Shown in pieces: positions 12,254-29,376 of a stretch of DNA of 64,000 nucleotides (positions are counted from its first letter, which is position 1; each line of letters starts with the position of its first letter). A model generated the notes under the pieces. It worked only from the letters and a program-made list of their open reading frames with translations, ran no database searches and was not told the DNA's origin. Where the stretch lies: the NCBI GenBank assembly GCA_050945515.1, contig JBMNTB010000008.1, positions 1,665 through 65,664 of the forward strand, written 5' to 3'. Origin of the DNA: Saccharofermentanales bacterium. GTDB taxonomy: Bacteria > Bacillota > Clostridia > Saccharofermentanales > DTU023. The position numbers were made by a program, and so were the translations under genes.

Positions 12254-13774
12254 ATGGCTTATTCACCAAAATTATCATCTGCATTTAATGATACGTATCT
12301 TAGAAGCAATCATATTTCACCACAATCCGGTATGTGTTCATTTTGCACCGAAGAATGTGAGGGAACATGTGAAATTGCTTTAGCATCTGTTTTAGGACAG
12401 CAGACTGTTTACCCAACAAATACTGGAAATAATCAAGTTGCTTCAGAGAAGAATTATCCAATTGATTTTTCGCACTTTAATATTAATGGACGTGTGTTTG
12501 GAGCTGTTGGAGCCAACCCTAACTATGAAGATGCCAACATATATCATGTAAAATTGGAAAGAGAATATGGAAAATTTAATCCCGTAAAATTATCGATGCC
12601 TATCATTTTACCTGCTCTTATTAAGTTGAATTGGAAAGATTATTTTGGCGGAGCAGCTATGGCAGGGGTAACATGTGTGATTGGAGAGGAAGCCAGAGAC
12701 AAGGATCCTGATCTACAGATTGAAAATGGCAAGGTTGTTGAGTTTCCAGCTTTAAAGAGTATGCTTGATTCTTTCCGTAAATATTATCGCGGATATGGAC
12801 AGATTGTATTGCAGTGCAATGTTGAGGATGATATGTTGGGTATTCCTGAATATGCAATAAAAGAGCATAATTTAGAAGCTTTAGAATTTAAATTTGGTCA
12901 AAGCGCAAAAGGCACACAACCGGTTCACAAATTAAAAGACAGGGAGGAAGCACTCAAAAAGCGGGAAATTGGAATATTAGTATTCCCGGATCCTATGGAT
13001 CCTGAGATTATTAGAAAAGCTGAAAAAGAAATTTGCCCTAATTTTTATTCATATAGCAGGTTGCCATTATGGGATGAGGAGTATTTAATCCCAAGAATTG
13101 AGGGATTAAGAAAAATGGGAGTAAAAAATATCTATCTAAAAATGGCCGGCTATGATAGAGAGGATTTAGAGAGAGTAATCAGGATTGGAAGCGAAGCGCA
13201 AGTAGACATGATTACCTTTGATGGTGCAGGCGGAGGAAGCGGATATAGTCCATGCAAGATGATGAATGAGTGGAGCCTGCCTACGATACTCCTGGAAGAA
13301 TCTGTTTGTAAAATAGTTGAAAAGTTAAAAGCTGAAGGCCGATATATCCCGGCTGTAACAATTACCGGTGGATTTAGTTCTGAAGACCAAGTGTTTAAGG
13401 CACTTGCATTTGGAAATCAGAATGTAACATCCATAGGATTATGCCGTGCTTCTATGACAGCCGCGATGACTGGTAAGAATATTGGAGAAAGAATAAAAAA
13501 AGGTGATGTTCCTAAGAATCTGAAGACATATGGAACTACTGTAAATGAAATATATTATGATCTTGCTGATTTGAGATCAATATATGACAAAAAAGCAGAT
13601 GAGTTTTCTTTAGGTGCTGTTGGAGTATTTTCGTATTTAAATAAAATTGCCTTTGGATTAAAACACTTCGCAGCATTAAATCGTAAATTTGATGTTTCAT
13701 ATCTAAATAGGAGTGATTTGATACCTTTAACTCATGATGCAAAAGACCTTATTAAAGGAAGATGGTTTGAATAG
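12254..13774 (+). CDS. FMN-binding glutamate synthase family protein (stand-alone)
   Basis: N-terminal CxxCxxxCxxxC cluster; EFKFGQSAKG and TFDGAGGGSG are typical of the GltS FMN domain. AAGGAG RBS. AT-rich. Confidence 0.8.
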   Translation: MAYSPKLSSAFNDTYLRSNHISPQSGMCSFCTEECEGTCEIALASVLGQQTVYPTNTGNNQVASEKNYPIDFSHFNINGRVFGAVGANPNYEDANIYHVKLEREYGKFNPVKLSMPIILPALIKLNWKDYFGGAAMAGVTCVIGEEARDKDPDLQIENGKVVEFPALKSMLDSFRKYYRGYGQIVLQCNVEDDMLGIPEYAIKEHNLEALEFKFGQSAKGTQPVHKLKDREEALKKREIGILVFPDPMDPEIIRKAEKEICPNFYSYSRLPLWDEEYLIPRIEGLRKMGVKNIYLKMAGYDREDLERVIRIGSEAQVDMITFDGAGGGSGYSPCKMMNEWSLPTILLEESVCKIVEKLKAEGRYIPAVTITGGFSSEDQVFKALAFGNQNVTSIGLCRASMTAAMTGKNIGERIKKGDVPKNLKTYGTTVNEIYYDLADLRSIYDKKADEFSLGAVGVFSYLNKIAFGLKHFAALNRKFDVSYLNRSDLIPLTHDAKDLIKGRWFE

Positions 13775-13893
13775 ATTTTACAATTAAGAATCTTACCTAG
13801 AGATAAAAGGCTGAAGTCTACAGAGATTTCTTCACACATCCAACTCGATCTTATAAAGCATCCCTGCTGTTCCTTATGTATCACCGCCGACCG

Positions 13894-14427
13894 TCAGAGG
13901 CGGATCACTGTTACCTCATCGACCCGGGCGGCACACAGACACATGCTGTACCCCGGCGGGGCGGACAGCGGTCGAAGCTGTGCACCCTGCGGAAGAGGGG
14001 CCGTGATATCGAAAGTATCAAGGCCGGACAGGATCCCCTCGCCGGTATATTTGACAAAGCTCTCCTTGGCCGTCCAAATCTCGAAGAATGCGGGCAACGC
14101 ATATTCCACTGCCGCCAGTGTGCTGTCCTCCCGCGGGTGAAAAAATCGCCGGGAGAGCCTGGACACGTCACAGGATATCTGCTGCTGGATGTCCAACCCC
14201 ACAGGAGACGCACCCAGTGCACACGCCCAAAAGGCACCGCTGTGCGAAATTGAGAAATGCACATCGGGCGCTTGTCGGAAAAAGGGCCGGCCACTCTCCT
14301 CCTCTTCCCTTTGCCAGCCCGCCGTCTCTCGCCCCGTGTAACGCGCCGCCGCGTCCAGCAGACGAAGGTGGCGTGGCAGGATATAGGTCTCCGGATATAG
14401 ATACACCGTGAAGTTTGCCCCGCTCAA
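13894..14427 (-). CDS. Sfp-type 4'-phosphopantetheinyl transferase
   Basis: HFSISHSG, VGLDIQ and WTAKESFVK motifs. Last gene of the NRPS operon. Confidence 0.9.
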   Translation of the reverse strand: MSGANFTVYLYPETYILPRHLRLLDAAARYTGRETAGWQREEEESGRPFFRQAPDVHFSISHSGAFWACALGASPVGLDIQQQISCDVSRLSRRFFHPREDSTLAAVEYALPAFFEIWTAKESFVKYTGEGILSGLDTFDITAPLPQGAQLRPLSAPPGYSMCLCAARVDEVTVIRL

Positions 14428-14429
14428 GG

Positions 14430-14654
14430 CTACTCCAGTCCTCGCTCCTGTATATAGGCAATGACATCTCTCACATGTCGCAGATTCCAGATATCCCGCG
14501 CGGGGATCTTGGTGTTGTAGTGTGCCTCAAATGCAGCGACGATGTTTACAATATCGAATGAATTCAATTCAAGGTCTTTGACAAAATCCGTATCCGGGGT
14601 CACGTCCCTCTTGCCGGTCACGTCAAATATAATGTCTTGGATCAGCTTCAGCAT
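14430..14654 (-). CDS. Acyl carrier protein
   Basis: 74 aa; DLELNSFDIV carries the phosphopantetheine Ser. AAGGAG RBS. Confidence 0.85.
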   Translation of the reverse strand: MLKLIQDIIFDVTGKRDVTPDTDFVKDLELNSFDIVNIVAAFEAHYNTKIPARDIWNLRHVRDVIAYIQERGLE

Positions 14655-14664
14655 AGTTTCTCCT

Positions 14665-16341
14665 TCACTTCACGGCCAGGTCGTTCCGGTTCTCTGCCGC
14701 ATACCGTTTTATTTTCATGGATGAGGTCTTTGTAAATTCCCGCTCCCGCAGGTTGACCACCTGCAGCTGCTGATAGGCTGGCAGCGTCGAGTTGAGGCGG
14801 TCAATCTCATGCTGCAGCGCTCCCAAAACTTCGTAGTCCTCCATATGCTCAGTCAGTTTAGCATCCGGATATATACTGACAGCCGGCTGGACGTCATCCG
14901 CATCCCCACCGGACACAATGCCGTATACCAGTGCATCCTTGACCATGGGAATGGTCAGCACCATCTCTTCCAGCTTCTCCGGCGAGATCTTTTTCCCGTT
15001 TTTCAAAACAATCAGATTTTTAGTCCGGCCGGTAATGAACAGGTGTCCGCGGGCATTTCTTGCCCCCAGGTCGCCGGTGCGGAACCAGCCGTCCTGCAAA
15101 ACGGCTGCCGTGGCCTCCGGATCCTTGTAGTAGCCGCCCATGACGCTAGGCCCCCGCACCAGGATCTCTCCGTCCACCAGCTTCATCTCGTATCCCGGCA
15201 GCAGCACCCCCACCGACTCCAGATCCCAGGACAGATTCCGATTGACCGAAATTAGTGGCGAGCACTCAGTAATGCCGTACCCTTGAAGCACCAGCACACC
15301 CAATGCTTCTAGCTGGCGGGAGATATCAGTATTCATATGGGCACCGCCACAGACAATCAGGCGTATGTGACCAAAGTATTGGTCCCGAATCTGCTTACGT
15401 TCCCTCTGACCAACCGTGAGCCTGAACCGCCGAAACATAAAGAATCGTTTGAGCAACCGATTAACCTTTTCTTCGCACCCAGCGCGCCTAATCTGTGCCC
15501 AGACTGTGTTATAAAGGGCTTCAACCATCAGAGGTACCGCAATCACAGTCTCGGATTCTGACAGCGTCAGGTCGCGCAGCATGGTGGCTAGACTGCCATT
15601 GATGGTCAGTCGCGCGCCCTTGAGCAGAGAACAGATTACACCGCAATTGAGCCCGTAGGCGTGAAAGAACGGGAGCCCCACGAAAATCGACTGCCCTAAG
15701 TCCACAGTGGCTACAGCGGCACCCGCGTTTTGCAGCAGATTTCTGTGCGTCAGCACCACTCCCTTTGGATCCGCGGTTGTCCCGGAAGTGAATATGAGTA
15801 CAGCAGGCTGCTCTGGCATCAGCGCCGGCGTCTCTGTCTCCTTTATCTCTATACCCTCGCGGTATAACGCGCCAAACGTGCCGCCCACTGAGGTGTCGCT
15901 TTCCGGGGCAGTAAGGGAAAATATACACTGTATATCAGCATTCTGCCCCAGCATAGGCATACAGATCGGCAGTAGGCTGGGGGAGGCAAAGACCACTTGC
16001 GCATCTGCCTGCTTGATCATACTGCGAATGGTATTATCATTTTGTTCAATGTCCACACAGATAGCCACACCACCGCTTGACACGACGGCAAAGAAAAGCA
16101 CGATCCACTCATAGCTGTTCTCCCCGACGATGGCCACTCGTTTCGCGGCCAGAGAGTGGGCGTTTAGCGCGCGCCTTAGTACCGCCACATCGTCACAGAG
16201 TGTTCGATAGGAATGACTCCGCATCTGCCCGTTTTCATCCGCATAGCAGATGGCCGGGCGGTCTCCGAATGCGGAGATCCCCTGTAAAAAGTCTGTAAAA
16301 GTGTCGTAGTATACAGTTGGATTCCAACGGTGGGTTTTCAT
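14665..16341 (-). CDS. Long-chain acyl-CoA/acyl-ACP ligase (AMP-binding)
   Basis: FTSGTTADPKG, QGYGITE, FRTGDLG and GRTKNLIVL motifs. ATGA overlap with the upstream response regulator. Confidence 0.88.
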   Translation of the reverse strand: MKTHRWNPTVYYDTFTDFLQGISAFGDRPAICYADENGQMRSHSYRTLCDDVAVLRRALNAHSLAAKRVAIVGENSYEWIVLFFAVVSSGGVAICVDIEQNDNTIRSMIKQADAQVVFASPSLLPICMPMLGQNADIQCIFSLTAPESDTSVGGTFGALYREGIEIKETETPALMPEQPAVLIFTSGTTADPKGVVLTHRNLLQNAGAAVATVDLGQSIFVGLPFFHAYGLNCGVICSLLKGARLTINGSLATMLRDLTLSESETVIAVPLMVEALYNTVWAQIRRAGCEEKVNRLLKRFFMFRRFRLTVGQRERKQIRDQYFGHIRLIVCGGAHMNTDISRQLEALGVLVLQGYGITECSPLISVNRNLSWDLESVGVLLPGYEMKLVDGEILVRGPSVMGGYYKDPEATAAVLQDGWFRTGDLGARNARGHLFITGRTKNLIVLKNGKKISPEKLEEMVLTIPMVKDALVYGIVSGGDADDVQPAVSIYPDAKLTEHMEDYEVLGALQHEIDRLNSTLPAYQQLQVVNLREREFTKTSSMKIKRYAAENRNDLAVK

Positions 16342-17801
16342 AGTTTAAAGATCCTTTCCGCAAATAACTCTGTTCGCTCGGTCAACGCGATCTCCTCTTT
16401 TGGCAATTTCGGGATCAGCGTGAGGAAGACGTCGACCATAGCACCGTCAAATTGGATATCCTTGTTATCCCTTAACTGTTTGGCGGCCTCTTCAAAGGTC
16501 ATCTTAGACCTGTAGCGGCGGGTAGACGTCATGGCGTCAAATGCATCGGCAATGGAAATGATCCGCGACTCCTCCGGGATTTCCTCTCCGATCAGGCCAT
16601 CGGGGTAGCCACCGCCGCCATATCGCTCATGGTGGCTCCGCACAATGGGCACAATCTCACGAAAATGTGTAATCGCCGACAAAATGGAGCAGCCATACTG
16701 CGGATGCTTACGAATGACGTCGAGTTCCTCATTGGTCAGTCGACGCTCAGCCAGTAGGATTTCATCAGGCACCGCCATTTTCCCTATGTCATGTAACAGG
16801 CCAGCCAGCTGCACTCGCTCACAGAATCGCTCTTCCTTCCCCAGCGCAACTGCTAATTGGATAGCGTAATAGGCAACGCGGTCGGAATGACCGCGGGTGT
16901 AAATGTCCTTCGCGTCGACCATGAGACGCAGCGCCTGGATTACCTCGAGGTAACCCGTCTTGACTCGTGTCATCAGAGCGTTGTTTTCCAGCGCCGACGC
17001 GCACTGACGGGAAAAGATCTCGAAGAGTCGCTCCTGATAAAACCCCGGCTTATTCTGCGTTTCCAGAGCGAGAACGCCAACGGCATTGCCGTCGGTATCC
17101 TGGAGCAGCGTCCGCATGCATAGCTTTTTCTCTTCCATGTCCTCAATCTGCCCCAGTAACTGCTGCGGCGTCGTGCCGTCTAGTGCTTCAAATTTCTTTC
17201 CGAAGGCGTAACGCAAAAGCTTCCGCGGTGCCGCCTCCGACCAAGCCGCCAAAAAACCACTTGTACAGGTCCAAAGTCGTTTGGCAATCTTCAGGATAGG
17301 CGGCGCTTCCAAAGCATCGACCGTACGGAAGCTGTAGATCTCAGGTAGCGCGTTTGCCAACTCGGCCAGGCTTTTCTGATAAGCTTTGATAGTACGCATG
17401 TGATCAATGGATTTGATGCACGATTCCACCAGAAGCTCCAGCTGGTCAAAGCGGTCACTCTTTTCATAATAGCCCTGAATGTCCAGAGCGCGTATGGTGC
17501 GGATAGGTGGAACCATACTCTTATGCCCGGTAAGAAGAATTATGAACAGATCCTGATTAAAGGTGCGTATCTGCTCTACCACTTGATCTCCGCAGATAGG
17601 CGTCATCAGGAAGTCCAGAAGTAGAATGTCATAGTTGCCGACCCGTATACGTTCGATGGCAGCATAGGGATCGTTTTCAATATCAACACGATAGCCGAGC
17701 GGTTGAAAATAAGACTGAATGGTCTCGGTCATGATAGGGTCATCGTCCAACGTCAAAATCGAGTATTTATTTTCATCTGCCCTATATCGTTTTTTTCTCA
17801 T
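16338..17801 (-). CDS. Response regulator: REC + GAF-like + HD-GYP cyclic-dinucleotide phosphodiesterase (RpfG-like)
   Basis: REC motifs LDDD, LLDFLM and LTG. HD-GYP motifs HSDRV, LHDIGK, HHERYGGGGYP and ADAFDAM. ATG 17801 overlaps the kinase stop. Confidence 0.9.
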   Translation of the reverse strand: MRKKRYRADENKYSILTLDDDPIMTETIQSYFQPLGYRVDIENDPYAAIERIRVGNYDILLLDFLMTPICGDQVVEQIRTFNQDLFIILLTGHKSMVPPIRTIRALDIQGYYEKSDRFDQLELLVESCIKSIDHMRTIKAYQKSLAELANALPEIYSFRTVDALEAPPILKIAKRLWTCTSGFLAAWSEAAPRKLLRYAFGKKFEALDGTTPQQLLGQIEDMEEKKLCMRTLLQDTDGNAVGVLALETQNKPGFYQERLFEIFSRQCASALENNALMTRVKTGYLEVIQALRLMVDAKDIYTRGHSDRVAYYAIQLAVALGKEERFCERVQLAGLLHDIGKMAVPDEILLAERRLTNEELDVIRKHPQYGCSILSAITHFREIVPIVRSHHERYGGGGYPDGLIGEEIPEESRIISIADAFDAMTSTRRYRSKMTFEEAAKQLRDNKDIQFDGAMVDVFLTLIPKLPKEEIALTERTELFAERIFKL

Positions 17802-19687
17802 GTTCTTGTTACCTCCCCGCATTCAATGCGTGAAATAGAGACCATTTCCAAAGGGATGGAAAACCCAAATATAGCTCCTCCACCAGGGTTGTCTTTAGCC
17901 CACATGAAACCGCCGAACTTCCCCCGCACAATCGAGTTGGATATAAACAATCCTAAGCCTGTCCCCTTGGTGCCTTTGCTGGTAATCATCTCGCGGAACA
18001 GCCGATCGCGCACCCGCGCGTCAATCCCACTGCCTGTATCCTTCACATATATGCTGAGATGTGTCTCATCTTCTTCGACCCCGATGTATATTTCTTTCAT
18101 TTCTGAGTCCCTCTCTGCGTAAATAGCGTTCCCCACCAAATTATTGATCACCTGAATCAGATTATTGATATCTCCGGTGAGTATGATACGCTCCTGGGGG
18201 TCGTATTCCAAAATTAGCTTGCAGCCGCTGGTCATCAACTCGTGCCGCATGAGTAGTGCCGTGCGCCTTATGAGCTCATCGAGGGTAAATTCACGCTTCT
18301 CTAAGTTGTCCAGATGGGTGGTCTGATCCTTGATCGCTGTGATAATATCAGACATATATGAACAGGAAGTACTGATCTTGCCCAGCCACTCGTCGATCTC
18401 CTCATATATCTCAAGGTAGTCCTCCAGGACAACCTCCTCATCTCCCAGGGATTCCCGCGCCTCCTGCACCAGCCTACTGGTGGCCGCGGTGCAACCCGCA
18501 ATGCTCATGATCGGCGTCTTCAGGTTATGGGCCAGACCACCCACCATTTGCCCCAAAAAGGCTAGTCGATCCTGTTCCATCATGCGCGTCTGACTCTCAT
18601 GCAACTGTTGCATGCCCTTTTTGACTTGCGAGATGTCCTTGAAGACTACCACAAACCCGGATATCTTGCCATCAATTTCCAAAGGTGTAATATCTACCAT
18701 GTAGTAATATTTTTTGCTCGACTCACCGTCCTTCTCGGGCACTATCATCGCCTGCTCATAGGTGAGCGGAACTTGGCTCTCCGCGCAGGATTGCACTGCT
18801 GAGATCAAAATATAGAGTGCCGACTGCCCGTCATTATCTTTTTCGTCGATGCAGTCTTTCAGGTACTTATTGGTAGTGATCCCGTAGAATTGCCCGAACA
18901 CAGTCCGAAAGCGCTGGTTTTCATTTACCACAAGGCCAGATTCGTTGAGCACCAGATATCCGTCCGAGATCCAGTCCAAAATATGCTGTGTGGCCACTGG
19001 AACAATATCCAGCAGATGAAGTCGGTAAATGGCTATAAACGTGCAGATCAACGTCGCGGTAAAGCTGAGAGGCGTGGCAAAAATAGAGAGGTCTGCAATC
19101 CCGAAAGTAGCCACCATACTGACCACTAGCGGCACCAGCTCCCCCAGCACCAGCATGGTGACCTGCATCCTATAGAGTCGGTTACGGCTCTTGACGCCGA
19201 AGCGAATGAGCAGGATAGTAGCTACAATCAGGCAAATATAGGTATAGGCACCCGAGATGAGCATATACGGTCCAAATACCAGTTCGCTGCGTACCACGGC
19301 AAACACGCGGTAATGCAAGTGATGAAGAGGGTTAGTCCAAACTATGATATTGGTGATAATCGGGATAATGAGTAGCAGAAACCAGCGCCTCGGCATTTGC
19401 ACCTTGCCAGTGATAAATGCGAGGGCGATCAACAGCATGATGACCGGAGTAAAAGCACCACCGATATAGCTCAGGGAATCCAACACAAACAGCGCCTTCA
19501 TGTCCACCGGGTCGACAAAAGCGATGCCAAGCATGGCAAGTAGCCAAACGAGAAAGACCACACAAAGCCAAACGTAAAGCTTCTGAATCAACTGTTGACG
19601 CTTAGTGGAAAACAGATTCCAAATGAGGAATATGGTGCAGATCAAAATGAGCCATAAGATCATAATAATTTCAAAGTTGCTGATCAC
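17798..19687 (-). CDS. Sensor histidine kinase with N-terminal 7TM (HisKA_7TM-like), PAS-like, HisKA and HATPase domains
   Basis: About 7 hydrophobic segments including WTNPLHHL. H-box LAHNLKTP, N-box NLVGNA, DTGSGI and GTGLGL. GTG start after GGAGG. Confidence 0.9.
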   Translation of the reverse strand: MISNFEIIMILWLILICTIFLIWNLFSTKRQQLIQKLYVWLCVVFLVWLLAMLGIAFVDPVDMKALFVLDSLSYIGGAFTPVIMLLIALAFITGKVQMPRRWFLLLIIPIITNIIVWTNPLHHLHYRVFAVVRSELVFGPYMLISGAYTYICLIVATILLIRFGVKSRNRLYRMQVTMLVLGELVPLVVSMVATFGIADLSIFATPLSFTATLICTFIAIYRLHLLDIVPVATQHILDWISDGYLVLNESGLVVNENQRFRTVFGQFYGITTNKYLKDCIDEKDNDGQSALYILISAVQSCAESQVPLTYEQAMIVPEKDGESSKKYYYMVDITPLEIDGKISGFVVVFKDISQVKKGMQQLHESQTRMMEQDRLAFLGQMVGGLAHNLKTPIMSIAGCTAATSRLVQEARESLGDEEVVLEDYLEIYEEIDEWLGKISTSCSYMSDIITAIKDQTTHLDNLEKREFTLDELIRRTALLMRHELMTSGCKLILEYDPQERIILTGDINNLIQVINNLVGNAIYAERDSEMKEIYIGVEEDETHLSIYVKDTGSGIDARVRDRLFREMITSKGTKGTGLGLFISNSIVRGKFGGFMWAKDNPGGGAIFGFSIPLEMVSISRIECGEVTRT

Positions 19688-19734
19688 CTTTCTCCCTCCT
19701 CTACCATCTTTCTCCTTCCTCCGATGTTGTAAGA

Positions 19735-22700
19735 TCAGATAAACGCATCCAGCACCCGGCGCACGTCTGTGTCCGGCCAGTGAAAGCCAGCTGCGGCCAT
19801 ACTGCTTTGAGTAAGTGTCGTGGATACCGTAATGGAGGCTACATCACTCTGAAACTGGTTCCACAGTTCGACAACCGCGTCAACTTCAGGGGATGTGCCA
19901 TCGGCGACCCGCTTGGAGAGCAAGGTGGCAAACTCCGACTCGGACAGAATCTGCAATCCCGTGATTACCTTGGCAAGGGTCTCTCCCATAGGGGCAGGGT
20001 TGGGTTCAATGATATGGCTCACGGTGTGCGGGGTGTGGCGGAGAACTACAATGGCCTCGGCACAGATGTCCACCGGCGTTAATTCCAGCGGCATCATCGC
20101 CATAACATCCGGCAGTGCGCCCAGCACCGAAATACCACGTACCGCGCGATAGAAAGCATTAGACGCCTGGTTCCGCTGGAATACACCGTCCGACGCACGG
20201 CCCACAAGGCGTCCGATCCGGAAAATTCGGGCGCATAGCCCCTGCTCAATCGCTCGACATACCTCCTGTTCGGCCAAAAACTTGCTCCTGGTATAGAAGT
20301 TGTCTGCCCAATTCTGCCCTATGTCTAAATCGTTTTCAGTGAAGATACAGGTACGCTGCGGCATCGCCTGCAGATGGGATCCACTGACACTGATTGTGGA
20401 GATGTGATAGAGAGCAGCGTTTGCCCGGCGGGTAAAGTCGGTCACCTGTTTTGTCCCCTCCAGATTTGTGGCAAGAAGGGCATCGTCGGCCGCATAGTGG
20501 CGTACGTCGGCCGCAGCGTGGAAAACCGCATTCACCTGCGCTTGGAGCGCTGTGTACTGCACAGCCGGGAGACCCAGGTTCGGCTGCGTGATATCCCCTT
20601 CCAGAATCTCTATCCGCGTGCCCTTGCGTTTTGTCCAACCGTTCCCGAAATACCAGGAGAGAGTCTCCCAGAGACGGTCGGGGCGCCCGCCGCGCAAAAG
20701 ACAGATCACCTTTTCAGCCCCATGCTCCAGCAAGCTACGCAACAGATGCGCACCCAGAAATCCGGTCGCGCCGGTCAGCAGAACGGTGGTCAGCGCTGGT
20801 TGGATTTGATTTGCCATCTGCGGCACCTGCGCTGTGACATTCAGCACTTCCATAGGAGGCGCAGACGGCATCTGCGCGGGATCCGCCGCCAATGGCGAAG
20901 AGGATGCATAAGCCGAGAGCATCAGCGCCTGCTTCTGCGCGGTCGGTACACGATAAAAGTCGGCCAGCGTCATGCTGATCCCACGGTTAAAGTATTCGCT
21001 CAAAACACTCAGCGCCGAGAGCGAAGTGCCGCCCTGTTCAAAGAAAGAAACCTCCGCGCTGAGATTTTGATTTTTCAGGATGGTCCTCCAGATCGCCAGC
21101 AATTCCTCGGCGTTCATCACCTGCGCTACGCCCGGTTTGGTACCTGATGTTGCCGTAGGTAGCGGTACCGAAGGCTGGGGCGAAACGTGCCCAGTCTCAC
21201 AATTCGGCTCCGCCTCGAGGACGGGGATGGAACTGTGTTCCAAGGCGGACTTGTCCTCTTCTTCGGACACGGTCTCTGCCACAGAAGTGACCGATGAGCG
21301 ACTCTGATCAAGGATAGGTGTGCTCGGCGGCGCCGCGTTGTCCGGTTCCAAGAACATGTCCCTAATGGCGAGCATGTCCAGCTTTCCGCTGGCATTATAG
21401 GGCAACTGACGCAGAACAAGAATTCGGGACGGGATCATATAAGAAGGCAGACTTCGTTCCAGCTCCTGCTTGAGCGAAGGCGATTGCAGGGTCTCCGGTG
21501 TAACAACGGCATACAGCGTCGTGGAACCGTCCGGGTTGCTTACCGGGACTGCGACCGCCTGTTCAGCGCCCGCATTCAGTAGAGCCTCGGTAATTTCAAC
21601 CAATTCGACGCGATTACCGTTGATTTTGATCTGCCCGTCGGTCCGTCCGAAACACTCGATCCGTCCGTCACTGCGCAGCCGGCCGATGTCGCCGCTGCGG
21701 TACATTTTTTCACCGGGGAAAAAGGGATCGGGCAGGAACACGGCCTGGGTCAGGTCGGGACGGGCAACATACCCGTCGGCGAGACAGCGGCCTGCCACAT
21801 AGAGTTCCCCGCGCACAGTGGGCAAGACCGGACGTAGCTCCTGATCCAGCACATAGATGCGGCAGTTGTCCAGCGGCGTCCCAATGGTCACAGGCTCCCC
21901 CGCTGACAATTCCTCCGCCGTCACATAGACCGCCGTTTCGGTGGGCCCGTACATGTTGATCAGACGTCCGGCACAGGACGCTTTGAACTTGGCCACAAGG
22001 GAGGCGGTAACCATTTCACCCGCCACAATCGTAAAGGACAGCAAGGCGATGGACTGGGCAAAGGCGTTATTACTCAGGCACATTTGCAGACGGCTGGGTG
22101 TAAACTGCGCGATACGGGGCTGATGAGCGCGGATCAGTTCGGCTAGCCGCCACGGCAGGAGCATCTCCTCTTCGTCTGCCAGCACGACAGCAAAGCCCTG
22201 GGCCAGCGCTAACAACGTCTCGGTAATAAAGATGTCAAAGGTGACGTTAGTGATACAAAGGACCGGCCCCTCTTCCCCCTTCATCCAAACACGCATACTC
22301 TCCAGCAGATTGGCCAGCGCACGGTGGGGAATTTGTACCCCCTTCGGTTTCCCGGTCGAGCCCGAGGTAAACAATATATACATCGGGGCTGTCCCCGGCG
22401 GGATATGCGTCTGCGCGATGGGATCCGCCGGCTCACTGGTACGCACAACAGGGCGCACACACGCCTCCTCCGGCAGTTCCGCCGCTGTCTGGTCGTCGCA
22501 GAGAATCACCCTCACATCGGCGGTTTCCAGCATATAGGCTATGCGGGCAGGCGGGTAATCCGATAGGAAAGGAACATAGACCGCACCGGCCTTCAAGATG
22601 CCAAGGAGAGCAGCGAGCAGCGTGGGAGAGCGCCGACAGGCCAGACCCACCCGGTCGCCCGGGCAGACCCCATGCCGCACCAGAAGCCCCGCCAGTAGGC

Positions 22701-25700
22701 AGGCCTGCTCCTCCAGTTCGCCATAGGTGACCACTTGGTCGTGCCAGATCACCGCCGCGGCCTGTGGGTGATCCTGCGCCTCCTCCTCGATGGTGCAGTG
22801 GACAGGCAGGTCGAGATAAGGGACCACGCGGCGATTCGGTTGGTCAAAGAACCGCCGTTGATCCGCAGGCGCCAGGAAACGCAGCTCCTGCACAGTTGCC
22901 GGCGGTCGGTCAGAAACCAGCTGCCGCAGCAGATAGGCAAAGCAACGGCCGAAAAAGGCGATGGTCTCCCGCTCAAACAGACTTGAAGCATATTCTATAA
23001 AGAACTGATAGCACTCGTCCTGCTTGACAGCTTCTACACTTAAATCCATTTTGGCCGTCTTGGTCGAGATGGGCAGGTACTGCAGGTCGATATCATCCAA
23101 CCTGAACCCCGCGGTATCCAACGGGCGTACTTGAAACAGTACCTGATAAAGCGGGTTCTGTGCCGTAGTGCGCGGGAAGTTATGAAGGGACAGGATCTGC
23201 TCCAGCGGATAATCCGCATGGTCGATCATGCCCAGTGTGCCGGCCTTCACCTGTTCAAAATAGGTGTGCAGATCGCCTGCCGGCCGCAAGCGCAGCGGCA
23301 TGGTGCCCATCAGCGGCCCGCAAATATTGCGCAGCTCCGGCCGCGTACGGTAGGAGATCGGCGTGCCGATTACCACATCTTCCTGCCCGGACAGCTTGGC
23401 CAGCAGCAGGCCAAACGTGCCCGCCAGGAACATATAGGCGGTGAGCTCCCGCATCTCACAATAGCGATCGATTGCGCGGCTGACATCCTCCGAGAGGGTC
23501 AACCGCTCGCTGTCACCGCAAAAATCGAATACAGACGGTCGCGGACGGTCCAGCGGCAGCTCCAATGTGCCGGAATAGCCCTCCAGTTCCCGTCTCCAAA
23601 AGTCTTTGTTCTCTTCCTCCTCCGGGGGAGTATGCTCATCGCGGTACCAGGCGTAGTCCAAATAGGACAAATGGGCCGACGGAATCTCTCCCCGATAATA
23701 GGTGCTGAGCCGGTCGAGCAGCAGCGGCGTGCTGACGCCGTCCGCTATTATATGATGTAGATCCACCAGAAGATACCAGCGTTCTTCCTCGTCCTGCCAA
23801 AGCGCAGCACGTATCAGTGGTGCGCGGGACAGATCAAATGGTTGCAAAAATTGTGCGAACGCCTCCCCGCTATCGGACGCAGTGAGCACTGGCAGCTCAA
23901 ACTCCGCCTCTTCGGCTACACAGGCCACAACCTCCCCCTCCTGGGGGACAAAAGCGGTGCGAAACATAACGTCGTCCCGTATCATGGCACGAAACGCATG
24001 GGTAAGCCGCGCCGCATCCGGCCGCTCACTCATGAGAAACGCGCCGGGCATGTGATAGGCAAAACCGCTGGAATCCATGTGGGACTGCACATAAATGCTC
24101 TTTTGCATAGCGGAGAGCGGGTAAGTCGAGCGGGCGGGCGCAGCGGAAATGGTCTCGGTCGTTGTCTCGGCCTGTCCCAGCGAGAGGAATTCCTCCAGAC
24201 GCTGTACCGTTCGGCAAGCATACAGATCGGAGACCAACAGCCGCACGCCGAAGCGCTCCTCGATTAGGCCAAGGGTCTCCATCGCGTTCAGCGAATTACC
24301 TCCGCAGAGGAAGTAGTCACTGTCAACACGCAAATTCGGTTTTTTCAAAACGGTCTGGAACACAGTAAGCAGCCGGGCCTGCCGTTCATTCTCCACCGGC
24401 CGCTGGCCCTCCTCTTGTGACGGTAACGGCAGCAGGTGTTCCTCCACCTTCCCATTTGCCGAAAGGGGGATGGACTCAACTTGTAAAATATTGGTGGGAA
24501 TCATGTAGCGCGGCAGATGGGCGGCGGCATAGGTCAGCAACTCGACCTCGGGGATGTGGTGGTCTGCCACATAGTAACCCACCAGCATATGGCTGTCATC
24601 CCGCTCCCAAACACGAACCACCGCATCGGTGACCTCCGGATGGCCGCGCAAGCAGACCGCGATTTCCTGCGGATCTACCCGCATCCCGCGCAACTTTACC
24701 TGCCGGTCGCACCGGCCGGCCAGCAGCAACTCCCCATCTTCAGTCCAACAGGCAAGATCGCCGGTCTTATAGAGGGTCTCCCCCATTTCAAATGGGCTGG
24801 GGAGGAAACTGGCCTCTGTCAACTCGGGCGCATTGCGGTAGCCGCGCCCAACGCAGATGCCACCCACATACAGTTCTCCATAGACATGTACGGGCAACGG
24901 CTGAAGTTCATTGTCCAAAACATAAAGATGGCAGTTCTCCATCGGGCGGCCGATGGTAATCCGCTCGGCACAGTCAACCCGCGCACAGCTAACCGCCACT
25001 GTCGTCTCCGCCGGGCCGTACTGATTATAGATACGCGCATCGGTGTAGCCTTTCAATCGCTGCAATAGCTCACCGGTCAATACCTCGCCGCCGCAGACGA
25101 TACTCTCCAGTCTGCGCAACGCCTTGGTAAATTCCGCATTCTGCATCAGCGCAGATAGGCGTGACGGCGTCGTTGACAGGAAGCCGACACCATACTCCCA
25201 GATCAGGCGCGCCAAAGCAGTCGGATTTTCCTGCTGCGGCTCATCCGTCAGCAGGACGGTACGCCCGCACAGAAGAGCTACCACACTCTCCAGCAGGAAG
25301 GCGTCAAATCCCACGTTGCATAGCGAGAGTACCGCGCCCCCCTTGCTATAGATAGGGCGCATGGTCATTGCGAGATTGAGCAGGCTCTTCTGCCGAATTT
25401 CCACACCCTTCGGCTGTCCGGTACTGCCAGATGTGTAAACAACATAGGCCAGGTCGTCCGGATGGCCGCGCCGAACGGGCGCCGAATCGTATGGCAGGGA
25501 ATCATAGTCCAGGAACGGAATATCGAGCGCACCCAGAGGTTGAGTGAGCTCCGGGATGGAAAGTAGCCGTGCCGCACCGCTCTGTTGAAGGATGTTCAGG
25601 ATGCGCTGGGTAGGCAGATCAAGCGGTAGGAGCAGCCAGGCACAGTTTGCCTGCATGATGCCCACCATAGCCGCAAACAGGCGGCGGTCGCGGGGCAACA

Positions 25701-27243
25701 AGACGGCAATCACTTCACCTTCCTCCGGGAGGGCGGCGGCGACCCGCTCCCCCTCGTGACTTAGAGTCTCATAGGTAATCCGCATGCCGCCACTGATGAG
25801 GGCGACGCGCCGGGGATTGCATGCGGCCTGCTTTGTAAACATGTCATAGGGACTGTCATTGCCACGCAGCGCTCGGGTGCGGTTGAAAGTGTATAGCACC
25901 CGCTCCCGCTCCTGCACGCTAAGGATAGGCAGCGCGCGAATGGGGGTGTCTGGATTATTGAGCGCCACCGTCAGGATCTGACACAGATGTTGGTGCAGCT
26001 CATCTATCTCCCGCCCGGAGAAAAATTGCGCCAGATAATCGTAATCAACAGAAAAGGCCCGGTTTCCCTCCAAATTGGTCAGGTGGATGCAAAGCTGCTC
26101 GACCTGATACCCACTGTAATGCCAACGTCCAGAAATACTGACCGAGGCATCCTGGCTCTCCAGGACCTGACTGCCCTGATAGGAGAGCATCAGATGAAAC
26201 AAGGGCTCTCCCGATTCCGCCAAGGCCTCGATGTGGGAAAAAGGAAATCTCTGATGGCGCAGCAGATTGATCCACTTCCCCATCAAATGATCGCTAAAGG
26301 AGTTGAAGCTCCATTCGTCGGACATCTTATAAACAAACGGCAAGGTGCTGACAAACATCCCTGTCGTCTGCTTAAATGAATAATTAGTACGATTAAAAAT
26401 CGGCACGCCGATGGTCAGGTGATCCTCCCCGCCCGTGCGTCTGAGGTAAGTGGCCAGTGCCATGTAAAATACGGCAAAGGGCGCGACGCGGTGCTCCATG
26501 CAAAATGAGGTAATCGCATGGTTGAGCTGCTGTGAGAGCTTATAACTGCGGCGCAGACCCACCCGGCTGATCCCCGCACCCCGGACAGACTTGAGCGATG
26601 CAGGCACTCCCGAGGTCTTGAGGATCTCATGCCAATAACGCTCATCCTCCTTGTAGGCGTCAGAGGAGAGATAGCTGCGTTCGGCTTCCACATAATCGCT
26701 ATAGTCTGGCTGCGGGGTTGCATCGGGCTCCTTGCCAGACAGGAGGTCCAGATAGGTCTGGCCAATCCGATTACAGAGCATAATCTGCGACCAGCCGTCG
26801 GAGATCAGATGGTGAGTCTCCACCAACAGACCTGCGGAGTTCTCCCCGATTAGAAAGATCACAAACCGGTAGAGTGGCGCGTCGATCAGCGGCATAGGGA
26901 TCTGTGTAAAACGCTCCGACCAGTTGGAGATGCTCTCCTCATCGGTCATGAAGAAGTCCAGGACGTCAATGGCCGCCTCGGTCTCCTTCGCGTAATATTG
27001 TACCGGCACACCATCACGGAGCTGCAGTCTAGTACGTAACGAGGCGTCCGATTGCAACACTAAATGCAGCGCTTTTTTCAATAGCAAAATATTAACACGG
27101 CCTTTGATCCGTATTGTCGCGCTGATGTTATTGATCGACGTCCCGGGAACCGCCTGTTCCAACGCCCATATATTTAATTGATTCAAAGATAGAGGAAATA
27201 CGTCCCCTTTTTTCATTCCAACATCGGTCACAGGCCCTACCAC
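19735..27243 (-). CDS. Dimodular NRPS C-A-T-C-A-T-R (terminal thioester reductase)
   Basis: C1 HHLISDG; A1 YTSGSTGQPKG and YGPAETT; T1 GGNSL; C2 HHIIADG; A2 FTSGSTGKPKG and YGPTET; T2 GGTSL; R domain TGATGFLG and YTRSK. Exact start is uncertain (27243, 27231 or 27216). Confidence 0.95.
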   Translation of the reverse strand: MVGPVTDVGMKKGDVFPLSLNQLNIWALEQAVPGTSINNISATIRIKGRVNILLLKKALHLVLQSDASLRTRLQLRDGVPVQYYAKETEAAIDVLDFFMTDEESISNWSERFTQIPMPLIDAPLYRFVIFLIGENSAGLLVETHHLISDGWSQIMLCNRIGQTYLDLLSGKEPDATPQPDYSDYVEAERSYLSSDAYKEDERYWHEILKTSGVPASLKSVRGAGISRVGLRRSYKLSQQLNHAITSFCMEHRVAPFAVFYMALATYLRRTGGEDHLTIGVPIFNRTNYSFKQTTGMFVSTLPFVYKMSDEWSFNSFSDHLMGKWINLLRHQRFPFSHIEALAESGEPLFHLMLSYQGSQVLESQDASVSISGRWHYSGYQVEQLCIHLTNLEGNRAFSVDYDYLAQFFSGREIDELHQHLCQILTVALNNPDTPIRALPILSVQERERVLYTFNRTRALRGNDSPYDMFTKQAACNPRRVALISGGMRITYETLSHEGERVAAALPEEGEVIAVLLPRDRRLFAAMVGIMQANCAWLLLPLDLPTQRILNILQQSGAARLLSIPELTQPLGALDIPFLDYDSLPYDSAPVRRGHPDDLAYVVYTSGSTGQPKGVEIRQKSLLNLAMTMRPIYSKGGAVLSLCNVGFDAFLLESVVALLCGRTVLLTDEPQQENPTALARLIWEYGVGFLSTTPSRLSALMQNAEFTKALRRLESIVCGGEVLTGELLQRLKGYTDARIYNQYGPAETTVAVSCARVDCAERITIGRPMENCHLYVLDNELQPLPVHVYGELYVGGICVGRGYRNAPELTEASFLPSPFEMGETLYKTGDLACWTEDGELLLAGRCDRQVKLRGMRVDPQEIAVCLRGHPEVTDAVVRVWERDDSHMLVGYYVADHHIPEVELLTYAAAHLPRYMIPTNILQVESIPLSANGKVEEHLLPLPSQEEGQRPVENERQARLLTVFQTVLKKPNLRVDSDYFLCGGNSLNAMETLGLIEERFGVRLLVSDLYACRTVQRLEEFLSLGQAETTTETISAAPARSTYPLSAMQKSIYVQSHMDSSGFAYHMPGAFLMSERPDAARLTHAFRAMIRDDVMFRTAFVPQEGEVVACVAEEAEFELPVLTASDSGEAFAQFLQPFDLSRAPLIRAALWQDEEERWYLLVDLHHIIADGVSTPLLLDRLSTYYRGEIPSAHLSYLDYAWYRDEHTPPEEEENKDFWRRELEGYSGTLELPLDRPRPSVFDFCGDSERLTLSEDVSRAIDRYCEMRELTAYMFLAGTFGLLLAKLSGQEDVVIGTPISYRTRPELRNICGPLMGTMPLRLRPAGDLHTYFEQVKAGTLGMIDHADYPLEQILSLHNFPRTTAQNPLYQVLFQVRPLDTAGFRLDDIDLQYLPISTKTAKMDLSVEAVKQDECYQFFIEYASSLFERETIAFFGRCFAYLLRQLVSDRPPATVQELRFLAPADQRRFFDQPNRRVVPYLDLPVHCTIEEEAQDHPQAAAVIWHDQVVTYGELEEQACLLAGLLVRHGVCPGDRVGLACRRSPTLLAALLGILKAGAVYVPFLSDYPPARIAYMLETADVRVILCDDQTAAELPEEACVRPVVRTSEPADPIAQTHIPPGTAPMYILFTSGSTGKPKGVQIPHRALANLLESMRVWMKGEEGPVLCITNVTFDIFITETLLALAQGFAVVLADEEEMLLPWRLAELIRAHQPRIAQFTPSRLQMCLSNNAFAQSIALLSFTIVAGEMVTASLVAKFKASCAGRLINMYGPTETAVYVTAEELSAGEPVTIGTPLDNCRIYVLDQELRPVLPTVRGELYVAGRCLADGYVARPDLTQAVFLPDPFFPGEKMYRSGDIGRLRSDGRIECFGRTDGQIKINGNRVELVEITEALLNAGAEQAVAVPVSNPDGSTTLYAVVTPETLQSPSLKQELERSLPSYMIPSRILVLRQLPYNASGKLDMLAIRDMFLEPDNAAPPSTPILDQSRSSVTSVAETVSEEEDKSALEHSSIPVLEAEPNCETGHVSPQPSVPLPTATSGTKPGVAQVMNAEELLAIWRTILKNQNLSAEVSFFEQGGTSLSALSVLSEYFNRGISMTLADFYRVPTAQKQALMLSAYASSSPLAADPAQMPSAPPMEVLNVTAQVPQMANQIQPALTTVLLTGATGFLGAHLLRSLLEHGAEKVICLLRGGRPDRLWETLSWYFGNGWTKRKGTRIEILEGDITQPNLGLPAVQYTALQAQVNAVFHAAADVRHYAADDALLATNLEGTKQVTDFTRRANAALYHISTISVSGSHLQAMPQRTCIFTENDLDIGQNWADNFYTRSKFLAEQEVCRAIEQGLCARIFRIGRLVGRASDGVFQRNQASNAFYRAVRGISVLGALPDVMAMMPLELTPVDICAEAIVVLRHTPHTVSHIIEPNPAPMGETLAKVITGLQILSESEFATLLSKRVADGTSPEVDAVVELWNQFQSDVASITVSTTLTQSSMAAAGFHWPDTDVRRVLDAFI

Positions 27244-27311
27244 CTTAAGAGAATTGCCGTGCGCCAGTATACTTGTACTGGTATGACGTTAGATATGGTT
27301 GCTAATATAGT

Positions 27312-27400
27312 AAACCTCATGACAAAAAGATAGCAAACTTCGTGACAAAAAGATAGCAAAACTCATGATAAAAAGCAAGATGATTGTGATAAACGACAGC
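27312..27400. repeat. Array of about 23-bp direct repeats upstream of the NRPS
   Basis: AAACCTCATGACAAAAAGATAGC (27312-27334), AAACTTCGTGACAAAAAGATAGC (27335-27357), AAAACTCATGATAAAAAGCAAGA (27358-27380), plus a degenerate fourth copy. Confidence 0.85.
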
Positions 27401-27633
27401 ATAAAAGCGACGTTTTGACACGAATGTGCCCGTGTGTACAAATATGAATGGGTAATAGAATTGAATGAAATCGACATTCAAAGAATTTTAAATACCCCCC
27501 AAGCCTTCGGCTTCCATAGAAAATAGTGGTTCGTCCGTTGCAATATCTACATAAATCCCCTTTTCATAAAAATTGTCGTACTCACTTGCTGAAAGGCCTT
27601 TCGGTTCCTGCCTCCCGAGTTATATGACACTGC

Positions 27634-28464
27634 TCAGCCGAGTGCTACATCAAGAATCATCATAACGGTAAAGCCGAGCATGACGCCGACCGTCGCTACA
27701 TCAGCCTTTACTTCCAGTTCCTCCGTCTCTTGGCGCTGTGCCTCCGGAATCAATTCTTCAACAACAACATAAATCATGGCACCGGCCGCAAAAGCAAGAG
27801 CAAAAGGCAAGATCTGCTGGAAGGCCTGAACTGCCAAGACTCCTATTATGGCCGATATCGGCTCGACAATACCTGACATCTGCCCGTAGAAAAAAGCTTT
27901 GCTCCGCCGCATGCCTTCACGTCTGAGTGGAATCGACACAGCAGCACCTTCAGGAAAATTTTGCAGGCCAATACCGAGAGCGAGCGCTAAAGCACCGGTG
28001 AGATCTGCTCCCTCTACGCCTGCAGCGGCCGCGCCGAAGGCGACACCGACAGCTAGTCCCTCCGGAATATTATGAATCGTAATAGCCAGTACAAGAAGAA
28101 TACTTCTCCTCAATTTCGTTTTCGGACCGTGTATTTCACCGCTTTTGCCTAGTCCAGAGTGCATATGCGGTAACAGATGATCAACAAGCATAAGAAAGCC
28201 GCCCCCGGCCAAAAAACCGAGCGCAGCAACTAAATATGGAATCTGCCCGATCTGCTCCGCCATAACAATCGCCGGCTGCAAAAGCGACCAGAAACTGGCG
28301 GCGATCATCACGCCGGAAGCAAAACCAAGCATAGCGTTCAAGACAATTTTATTAATGCGACGGAAGAAAAAAACCAAGGCCGCACCAAGTGCTGTCATAC
28401 CCCAGGTAAAAAGTGTCCCGAGTAGCGCCTGCAGTACAGGATCAAGTTCTTTTAAAAAAGTCAT
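27634..28464 (-). CDS. ZIP family divalent metal transporter (ZupT/GufA-like)
   Basis: [16 protein letters not shown] and [16 protein letters not shown] motifs. Confidence 0.9.
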
Positions 28465-29346: not shown

Positions 29347-29376
29347 ATTATCCTCCATCAAAGATTAATTATTTAT

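Follow-up and report, generated by a model that had tools for sequence, protein, structure and literature searches.

There is precedent for quorum sensing whose logic relies on a membrane kinase and an HD-GYP enzyme. In the Rpf/diffusible signal factor (DSF) system of Xanthomonas, which is composed of RpfF, RpfB, RpfC and RpfG, a synthase of a lipid-like signal, an acyl ligase, a membrane sensor kinase and a regulator with a receiver (REC) and an HD-GYP domain are encoded together, and the output is via hydrolysis of cyclic di-GMP (c-di-GMP) and not via DNA binding. Here we describe an operon of six genes from a Saccharofermentanales bacterium (NCBI GenBank assembly GCA_050945515.1, contig JBMNTB010000008.1, positions 1,665 to 65,664; this stretch of 64,000 nucleotides is hereafter the window, and positions are those of the window), in which a nonribosomal peptide synthetase (NRPS), a seven-helix sensor histidine kinase and a REC-HD-GYP response regulator are followed by an acyl ligase, an acyl carrier protein (ACP) and a 4'-phosphopantetheinyl transferase (PPTase). 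About 40 genomes keep NRPS, kinase and regulator together, and this conservation of the trio points to a system of cell-to-cell signalling that has not been described. What is new in it is this combination of parts, the chemistry and the hosts.

An earlier note, made from the letters of this stretch alone, had read the operon as an rpf-like circuit. As logic that reading stands: a REC-HD-GYP regulator is present, it is encoded together with a putative signal synthase, an acyl ligase and a membrane kinase, and the predicted output is again c-di-GMP hydrolysis. It does not extend to the synthase and the kinase themselves. An NRPS takes the place of the crotonase, no RpfF-type domain being found by Pfam in the six genes or their flanks, and the kinase is a HisKA_7TM-weak PAS-HATPase protein without the receiver and histidine phosphotransfer (HPt) domains of the RpfC hybrid. 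The regulator has the make-up of an RpfG-type protein with an extra DUF3369 domain between Response_reg and HD, and the hosts are Gram-positive anaerobes.

In Vibrio, the genes for synthase and receptor are adjacent, and so are the NRPS and seven-helix kinase genes here. LuxN (nine helices) and CqsS (six helices) are described as polytopic kinases that bind an acyl-homoserine lactone and CAI-1, respectively, within their helices (PMC5007282), and the LuxM/LuxN and CqsA/CqsS pairs share with the operon the association of an acylated-signal synthase with a polytopic kinase that has no extracytoplasmic domain. However, no sequence relation was detected: Pfam places the window kinase in a different sensor family, and NCBIfam yields only sub-threshold matches to the kinase core (LuxQ, 53 bits versus 1200). 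The outputs differ as well, the Vibrio kinases acting through LuxU/LuxO on transcription, whereas an HD-GYP enzyme and an NRPS-made signal are proposed here.

The biosynthetic genes resemble the reductase-terminated clusters of gut Clostridia, including the rup (ruminopeptin) cluster of Ruminococcus bromii, which likewise combine an NRPS of condensation (C), adenylation (A), thiolation (T) and reductase (R) domains in the order C-A-T-C-A-T-R with a ligase, an ACP and a PPTase. These gut clusters are reported to make dipeptide aldehydes or pyrazinones (PMC12327764), and an N-acyl dipeptide aldehyde is the predicted product here too, the comparison with rup being made with its published description. 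The gut products have been discussed as protease inhibitors and not as signals that have a receptor. The frame of gut Clostridia, in which the earlier note had set the operon, does not fit this genome, and the window island comes from anaerobic-digester bacteria: the stretch occurs in sequencing runs of bioreactor, anaerobic-digester and biogas metagenomes. In the Pvf system of Pseudomonas, a small NRPS (PvfC) makes diffusible autoinducers that control many genes, and their receptor and transduction pathway are stated to be still undiscovered (PMC10194917); in the operon described here, by contrast, a candidate receptor is encoded inside. No account of an NRPS associated with a HisKA_7TM kinase and an HD-GYP protein turned up in the literature searched, which covered the gut dipeptide-aldehyde clusters through reviews and not through their primary papers and supplements.

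Operon layout and predicted functions

Coordinates were taken from the open reading frame (ORF) listing of the window, junctions were read directly from the sequence and domains were assigned by Pfam. All six genes run in the same direction on the minus strand, from 27243 down to 13894. They encode an NRPS of 2502 amino acids (19735..27243), the sensor histidine kinase (17798..19687; 629 amino acids, GTG start), the response regulator (16338..17801; 487 amino acids from an ATG that overlaps the kinase stop, the longest ORF beginning upstream of it at 17822), an acyl-AMP/acyl-CoA ligase-type adenylating enzyme (14665..16341; 558 amino acids), a stand-alone ACP (14430..14654; 74 amino acids) and an Sfp-type PPTase (13894..14427; 177 amino acids, TTG start). 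A 47-nt gap with a GGAGG-type ribosome-binding site separates the NRPS and kinase genes, the kinase/regulator and regulator/ligase junctions are both ATGA overlaps, ligase and ACP are 10 nt apart with an AGGAG in the gap, and ACP and PPTase are 2 nt apart. The gene order, domains and spacings given in the earlier note agree in every detail with these readings, as does its remark that the six genes include no exporter, immunity gene or DNA-binding protein (Pfam). The start of the NRPS is probably to be moved, because the listed GTG at 27243 sits within an AAGGTGG ribosome-binding site and relatives align from residue 11-16; an in-frame GTG at 27231 or an ATG at 27216, 12 or 27 nt downstream, is the likelier start.

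The NRPS contains two Condensation, two AMP-binding and two PP-binding domains and a NAD_binding_4 domain at residues 2156-2398, and is read from these and from its motifs as C(starter)-A-T-C-A-T-R. Both C domains keep HHxxxDG (residues 144 and 1163), and the reductase keeps the nucleotide-binding motif TGATGFLG and YTRSK (YxxxK). Domain order and reductase motifs are those of a reductase-terminated lipo-dipeptide NRPS, and its reductive release is predicted to yield an N-acyl dipeptide as either the aldehyde or the alcohol, since two- and four-electron reduction look alike in the sequence. The 10-residue A-domain codes were extracted with motif anchors on an alignment of all A domains, position 278 being the least certain. 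Within the clade of the window, the first code is DAL[SAGC][VIL]GQ[VI][AG]K and the second mostly D[IT]TQ[IFL][AVTC][ML]VYK; neither is known to match a canonical code, neither occurs in the literature searched, and an amino-acid prediction for the window NRPS was dropped.

The ligase has AMP-binding and AMP-binding_C_3 domains, and its best NCBIfam and PDB matches are fatty-acid ligases, all below family cut-offs. The ACP is a PP-binding protein with sub-threshold matches to NCBIfam acyl carrier protein models, and the PPTase, an ACPS-domain protein in Pfam, has the aureusimine PPTase AusB as its best NCBIfam match, below the cut-off of that family. A stand-alone ligase and ACP beside an NRPS that starts with a C domain form the layout of ligase-plus-ACP lipoinitiation of the DptE/DptF type.

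The kinase matches HisKA_7TM (PF16927) with 128 bits against a cut-off of 28.6, in addition to HATPase_c and a sub-threshold PAS_9. By hydropathy, residues ~7-225 hold seven hydrophobic segments, and the loops joining them do not exceed ~25 residues. The protein has no extracytoplasmic domain, and a PAS-like domain (~241-354), a dimerization and histidine phosphotransfer (DHp) domain with H387 and a catalytic and ATP-binding (CA) domain follow the helices. It thus has the seven helices, the DHp histidine and the HATPase domain by which a HisKA_7TM sensor kinase is recognized. In an alignment of 40 orthologous kinases, H387 (in GGLAHNLKTP), N520, D550 and G575-G579 (the N, G1 and G2 boxes) are invariant, and so are the polar residues N119, H122 and Q175 in or beside the helices. 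Structural matches in PDB cover residues 318-613 only, with none for the sensor part, and an ESM Atlas search with residues 1-240 returned HisKA_7TM clusters only. When the sensor part was compared, without a profile, with 1.84 billion representative proteins, 58 relatives matched at E<=1e-30 and 2644 at E<=1e-10; the NRPS-linked kinases are thus a small branch of a larger sensor family.

The regulator consists of Response_reg, the GAF-like DUF3369 and HD_5/HD. Its best solved relatives are the c-di-GMP phosphodiesterase PmGH (4mcw, E 5.6e-35), with which the HD-GYP domain aligns over 233 residues, and then a cyclic GMP-AMP (cGAMP) phosphodiesterase (5z7c, E 7.7e-32). Across 34 orthologues, receiver residues D19, D20, D63, T91 and K114 are invariant, as are H305, H337-D338, H366, H390-H391-E392, G398-Y399-P400 and D419 of the HD-GYP domain, whose His, Asp and Glu residues we take to be the metal ligands of the family. 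The HD and HHExxDGxGYP motifs of HD-GYP proteins are both recognizable together with the metal-ligand set, the D of DGxGYP being a G in the window. Based on these motifs and on the alignment with PmGH, the regulator is predicted to be a c-di-GMP phosphodiesterase.

The genome has 10 GGDEF matches, and the operon regulator is the only HD_5 protein found in it. One of the GGDEF matches, a GAF-GGDEF-EAL protein, is encoded in the window itself at 22-1965 (+), ~12 kb from the island that holds the operon. The only c-di-GMP-I riboswitch found in the genome (contig C1:148491-148600 (+), locus L124; 39.4 bits) precedes a gene for a 2005-amino-acid surface protein with GLUG motifs, an ORF of 249 amino acids and a gene with a prepilin N-methylation motif; these GLUG and pilin-like genes are likely a read-out of c-di-GMP in this organism. 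Feedback of c-di-GMP onto the operon through a riboswitch was rejected, because neither the window nor 7 related loci (142 kb) gave an Rfam match at or above the gathering score.

Conservation of the trio and congruence of its trees

Orthologues of the kinase were collected from 7 loci found in a species-genome scan, from 31 places in 30 of 301 genomes of the window's own order and from 5 of 401 sampled genomes of a second order, that of Fumia. After de-duplication, 41 loci from 40 genomes and at least two orders remained, and up to 20 kb was fetched round each; a Pseudobdellovibrio locus (L008) that matched in the kinase core only, with 26% identity, was left out as non-orthologous. The identities of the orthologous kinases range from 31 to 96%. 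In 40 of the 41 loci, the kinase gene is immediately preceded by NRPS sequence (36 recognizable NRPS ORFs and four loci in which the contig ends inside a thioesterase domain), while in the remaining locus, L101, the contig starts inside the kinase. A REC-HD-GYP gene lies directly downstream of the kinase in 37 of 41. The synteny that the earlier note had suggested checking is therefore kept down to a kinase identity of 31%, and it spans four NRPS architectures. The four loci without a downstream REC-HD-GYP gene (L088, L091, L093 and L101) are from one genus of the window's order, with an NRPS of the C-A-T-thioesterase (TE) type; in L093, the only one of them that is long enough, an 803-amino-acid PAS-GGDEF-HD-GYP protein is encoded two genes upstream of the NRPS.

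The association also holds when searched from the side of the NRPS. With the starter C domain (C1) as query, 31 of the 301 own-order genomes gave matches of 31-41% identity at E<=1e-43. The kinase is present in 29 of these genomes; G265 and G289, the two without it, have the NRPS on a contig that ends within ~1 kb. At the next tier of C domains in this order (25-28% identity), no kinase orthologue was found. In the second order, the five genomes with C1 matches at E<=1e-79 are the same five that have the kinase at E<=1e-100, and five more distant HisKA_7TM kinases of that order (24-27% identity, tblastn) have no adjoining NRPS or HD-GYP gene. Other NRPSs of the same genomes, such as a 2992-amino-acid enzyme on contig C7, are not linked to such a kinase. 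When all ORFs of the 41 loci were compared with one another, the only ones shared beyond the genus level were those of NRPS, kinase and regulator, plus the PPTase in 12 loci, with no conserved exporter, immunity gene or DNA-binding regulator. Synteny of this kind establishes that NRPS, kinase and regulator are functionally coupled, whichever way information flows between them.

The linked NRPSs are of four architectures. C-A-T-C-A-T-R is found in 12 loci including the window, with ligase and ACP genes downstream in all 11 reachable loci and the PPTase gene in 9; C-A-T-R in 2 loci; C-A-T-C-A-T-TE in 4 loci, 3 of them with a PPTase gene upstream; and C-A-T-TE in 18 scored loci, some N-terminally truncated, in addition to 4 that show the TE domain only. 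L101 shows no NRPS and stands outside these groups. Maximum-likelihood trees of 40 kinases and 30 starter C domains each resolve the same four groups with SH-aLRT values of 85-100 on the group branches and have a similar inner structure, although in the kinase tree each TE group forms one clade only once the rows with truncated or unseen NRPSs are set aside. The kinase and C-domain phylogenies are thus congruent, with four matching groups; the earlier note had called for a comparison of this kind with A domains and kinase sensor domains. Sequences of the second order are placed within clades made up of the first. Genome G288 has two complete systems, C-A-T-R and C-A-T-TE (loci L081 and L097), whose kinases come from the matching clades, an arrangement that resembles parallel signalling channels. 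Given the congruent trees, the nesting across orders and the matching kinases of G288, the trio has been inherited and transferred as one module.

The A-domain codes of the relatives are DFWN[IV]GMVHK in C-A-T-TE, DVWHFSLV[DE]K and then DFWNIGMVHK in C-A-T-C-A-T-TE, and DVWHFSLIDK in C-A-T-R. We take DFWN[IV]GMVHK to be the canonical code for Thr and the DVWHFSL type to be that for Ser, and the match of the relatives' codes to these two validates the anchoring used for code extraction. In all 22 TE-type NRPSs (within the range of loci L075-L100 and L118, e.g., L079:4938-8888), the thioesterase nucleophile is Cys (xHCxG) and the last A domain has DFWN[IV]GMVHK. GXCXG is described as the motif of the thioesterase that closes the N-acyl-alpha-amino-beta-lactone of obafluorin (PMC6668435). 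With their Cys thioesterase and a Thr-type last code, the TE-type relatives are candidate makers of N-acyl-Thr or N-acyl-Ser-Thr beta-lactones. It is they, and not the window NRPS with its terminal reductase, that compare with the obafluorin NRPS ObiF, which is a C-A-T-TE enzyme whose GXCXG Cys thioesterase acts on a beta-hydroxy amino acid to give an N-acyl-alpha-amino-beta-lactone (PMC6668435). ObiF differs from them in its aryl starter, its non-proteinogenic amino acid and its antibiotic product, according to the same source (PMC6668435), whereas the TE-type relatives combine a starter C domain and a plain Thr code with linkage to a sensor pair. As judged from their domains and codes, all four NRPS types appear to make small N-acylated amino-acid derivatives with a reactive C-terminus, resembling acyl-homoserine lactones.

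Within the kinase, the sensor part diverges fastest between the four groups: the ratio of between-group to within-group identity is 0.52 for the seven helices and 0.58 for the PAS-like domain, versus 0.75-0.81 for the DHp domain, the linker and the CA domain. The same pattern of sensor divergence is ascribed to AgrC, a kinase for peptide signals (PMC5007282).

A proposed signalling role and the alternatives to it

Based on these results and by analogy with the systems described above, we propose with moderate confidence that the kinase senses, in the membrane, the N-acyl peptide electrophile made by its own operon and responds with c-di-GMP hydrolysis. Judging from the domain set, the ligase would load a fatty acid onto the stand-alone ACP, itself primed by the PPTase, the starter C domain of the NRPS would acylate the first amino acid, the second module would add another and the terminal reductase would free an N-acyl dipeptide aldehyde or alcohol. 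This small and lipophilic product may, by analogy, partition into membranes, where the co-transcribed kinase, lacking an extracytoplasmic domain, would detect it within its bundle of seven helices. Intact motifs suggest that the kinase would then phosphorylate D63 of the regulator and so switch on the HD-GYP phosphodiesterase. As a consequence, cellular c-di-GMP, which may be made by up to 10 GGDEF proteins, would drop, and the drop would be read at least by the c-di-GMP-I riboswitch in front of the 2005-amino-acid surface protein and the pilin-like gene. If this mechanism applies, the module would be a quorum-sensing or autocrine circuit whose output is a second messenger and not transcription.

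A synthase-receptor relation is favoured by the position of the sensor genes in the biosynthetic operon, by a kinase without an extracytoplasmic domain, by kinase clades that match the product-determining architecture and by the fast divergence of the sensor part. The same features are said to mark LuxN, CqsS and AgrC (PMC5007282).

Several observations weigh against this proposal. The link between product and kinase is drawn from conserved synteny, which gives functional coupling and no direction. Sensor domains of histidine kinases generally evolve faster than the kinase cores. Within the clade of the window, the ratio of sensor to core identity falls with the distance between A-domain codes (Spearman -0.40), but this correlation is confounded by overall divergence (-0.79) and by non-independent pairs; co-variation of sensor and A-domain code was consequently rejected as non-discriminating. 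The genus with four loci mentioned above keeps the NRPS and the kinase without the REC-HD-GYP gene. The window regulator reads HHERYGGGGYP where most orthologues have HHERIDGxGYP, and 5 of the 12 regulators of the window clade are without DUF3369, which is therefore dispensable. The genome, at 92% completeness, yielded no PilZ domain, and feedback onto the operon is not visible, as no c-di-GMP riboswitch occurs in the window or the 7 related loci. The contigs from RNA runs considered in the next section do not prove one transcript, and they may include carry-over of DNA. Finally, aldehydes and beta-lactones are classic covalent inhibitors of hydrolases. Related gut dipeptide aldehydes are described as covalent inhibitors in reviews (PMC12327764). 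The products may thus be weapons first.

The last point leads to the first of two alternatives, both of which we regard as unlikely although they deserve to be weighed. The product could be mainly a covalent inhibitor of proteases or other hydrolases of competitors, of the host or of the producer itself, with an aldehyde warhead here and a beta-lactone in the relatives, and the kinase-regulator pair could serve the cell only in monitoring the amount or membrane load of its own product and adjusting its physiology via c-di-GMP during production, with no message passed from cell to cell. Consistent with such a role, all four NRPS types end in a domain capable of forming an electrophile, either R or a Cys-TE after Thr, the latter by comparison with the described obafluorin enzyme (PMC6668435). 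The rup products of R. bromii are called dipeptide aldehydes, with the aldehydes as the active form, in a review (PMC12327764), and the title of the original work names them protease inhibitors. No exporter is conserved across the 41 loci. However, self-monitoring would still require a kinase that senses the product, and the explanation overlaps with the mechanism proposed above and differs from it only in ecological role. Furthermore, a dedicated receptor that co-diversifies is typical of signalling pairs, and neither the six genes nor the comparison of the 41 loci revealed an immunity or resistance gene.

To a similar degree, we doubt that the kinase responds to another cue, such as the supply of fatty acids or amino acids, the state of the membrane or an external compound, and owes its co-inheritance to a need to match c-di-GMP turnover to the making of the lipopeptide, perhaps by way of a hypothetical c-di-GMP-dependent control that acts on the assembly line or on the operon. 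In the literature found, HisKA_7TM is treated only as a sensor domain, with its ligand unstated; a PAS-like domain follows the helices of the kinase; and the genus without REC-HD-GYP has a PAS-GGDEF-HD-GYP gene near the NRPS, which indicates that a link to c-di-GMP is kept there. These features would all suit another cue. On the other hand, kinase and regulator are encoded within the biosynthetic operon, after the NRPS, and would be made only when the NRPS is made. The kinase clades track the NRPS architecture, that is, the predicted product type, even across orders and in the genome with two systems, and no riboswitch or DNA-binding output that feeds back on the operon was found.

It is improbable that the HD-GYP domain acts on another nucleotide, such as 3'3'-cGAMP, or serves as a binding adaptor controlled by phosphorylation. 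The second-best solved relative is a 3'3'-cGAMP-specific phosphodiesterase (5z7c), and the window has a G for the D in HHERxDGxGYP; against this stand the presumed metal ligands and the GYP residues, invariant in 34 orthologues, the closer relationship to PmGH, and the 10 GGDEF matches and c-di-GMP-I riboswitch of a genome in which cGAMP synthases were not searched for. That the sensor pair entered the NRPS cluster by chance and is functionally unconnected, one of the conditions under which the earlier note would have given up its own reading, is most improbable and is refuted by the survey of loci, in view of the upstream NRPS in 40 of 41 loci, the congruent trees, the two-way co-occurrence in two orders and the distant homologues that are unlinked.

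Returning to a kinase that senses the product of its own operon, a broader and more tentative interpretation, which we put forward with less confidence than the mechanism itself, is that the loci represent an unrecognized quorum-sensing family of anaerobic Firmicutes that uses N-acyl amino-acid or dipeptide electrophiles in at least four 'pherotypes', acts through c-di-GMP hydrolysis and travels as a cassette between orders. Under this interpretation, the R enzymes would make aldehydes and the Cys-TE enzymes N-acyl-(Ser-)Thr beta-lactones as Gram-positive counterparts of acyl-homoserine lactones, each chemical type would have its own co-evolving seven-helix kinase, and two pherotypes could share one genome.

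Small NRPS clusters are common in anaerobic Clostridia, and the native role of their products has been discussed mainly as inhibition of host proteases. If a receptor is indeed encoded in the operon, the question of native role would become testable, and the kinase could be used as a specific biosensor for an otherwise elusive reactive product. Four kinase clades matched to four architectures would be natural ligand-receptor specificity pairs. An HD-GYP output would tie secondary metabolism to the c-di-GMP choice between attached and free-living growth, a choice that is little studied in strict anaerobes living in digesters and guts. The family may also supply the first genetically obvious receptor for autoinducers that an NRPS makes, a class to which the Pvf signals belong. 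The TE-type relatives, in turn, point to a candidate reservoir of simple N-acyl-threonine beta-lactones that has not been described.

Island, expression and neighbouring genes

The six genes have a GC content of 50-59%, compared with ~45% across most of the window, and are flanked by housekeeping genes: a ZIP transporter, a peroxiredoxin and Fur upstream, and a Glu_synthase-like gene, an ABC transporter and arg genes downstream, with a ketopantoate reductase also among the flanks. In the 1.94-Mb assembly (G000, 92% complete), the operon is a discrete, GC-rich accessory island of 13.7 kb from 13855 to ~27519, as its absence from a close relative, a different downstream flank in another and its raised GC content, read as 55-59% for the island, demonstrate. 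A species of the same genus (genome G025, locus L001) carries the operon at 94.9% nucleotide identity and is collinear with the window from 29688 to 13855, 39 nt beyond the PPTase stop, after which the two diverge; the segment 13855..13893 (-) is thus the downstream edge of the island, and the loose end of a contig from an RNA run at 13874 carries the sequence that L001 has there. G024, a complete genome of the same genus, has the ZIP transporter at 96% protein identity, its similarity to the window stops at ~27519, and neither kinase nor NRPS was found in it.

The kinase is present in 4 of the 65 genomes of the window's own family. Its nearest relatives (45-60% identity) are in assemblies labelled Oscillospiraceae and in the isolate Fumia xinanensis NSJ-33 (locus L006), of which at least Fumia belongs to another and larger order than the window's organism, whereas identity drops to 39-40% for the kinases that other genera of the family carry. 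Because closer kinases occur in another order than in the rest of the family, the cassette is concluded to have moved horizontally, and the set of six genes is taken as one horizontally mobile operon.

Contigs from metatranscriptome runs (3 runs of 3 studies, biogas fermenters), which derive from a relative ~94-95% identical to the window, cover all 30 bins of 13600-27800 and bridge every junction (PPTase/ACP/ligase, ligase/regulator, regulator/kinase and kinase/NRPS). Their depth is lower in the bin downstream of the PPTase, a weak hint at most. Such contigs cannot show starts, ends, strand or a single transcript, and may include carry-over of DNA; they lend weak support to expression of the whole operon.

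The 5' region of the operon, 27244..27519 (-), is at the same time the upstream edge of the island. It contains two exact 18-nt direct repeats (27343-27360 and 27320-27337) with a period of 23 nt and a degenerate third copy, just upstream of a TATATT -10-like box that precedes the NRPS. The repeat occurs twice in the window versus 0.09 expected, has no further exact copy in the genome and is not conserved in more distant loci, the 95%-identical relative L001 being the only one in which it is kept. It could be the binding site of a regulator that recognizes direct repeats, a candidate that was set aside because the repeat is exact in G000 and L001 only, without conservation at greater distance. 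A scan for promoter-like sites (17 versus 13.2 expected) and terminator-like sites (16 versus 15.0 expected) was uninformative, as the counts are close to expectation.

A second NRPS cluster of the same genome is located on contig C7 (L125:634-12059) and consists of a PPTase and the 2992-amino-acid NRPS mentioned above, with the architecture A-T-C-A-T-C-A-T-R. Directly downstream of this NRPS is a gene for a 587-amino-acid fusion of a MatE exporter with an anti-sigma-kinase-like HATPase_c_2 domain. The cluster has no HisKA_7TM kinase, and similar NRPSs of ~3000 amino acids are found in other genomes of the family.

Beyond the island, the neighbourhood is variable. The region 28654-29790, with the peroxiredoxin and Fur genes beside ZIP, has no match in a 19-kb stretch (L126) round the ZIP gene of G024, where the genes on either side of the corresponding position are collinear. 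At the other end, a gene of 506 amino acids at 12254-13774 (+), with a GC content of ~38%, points towards the island end and converges with it. Its sole Pfam match, to Glu_synthase, is weak (34.7 bits), and NCBIfam gave none. The gene is carried with 72-81% identity by two further genomes of the genus; it was not found in G024, and in G025 it is not adjacent to the island.

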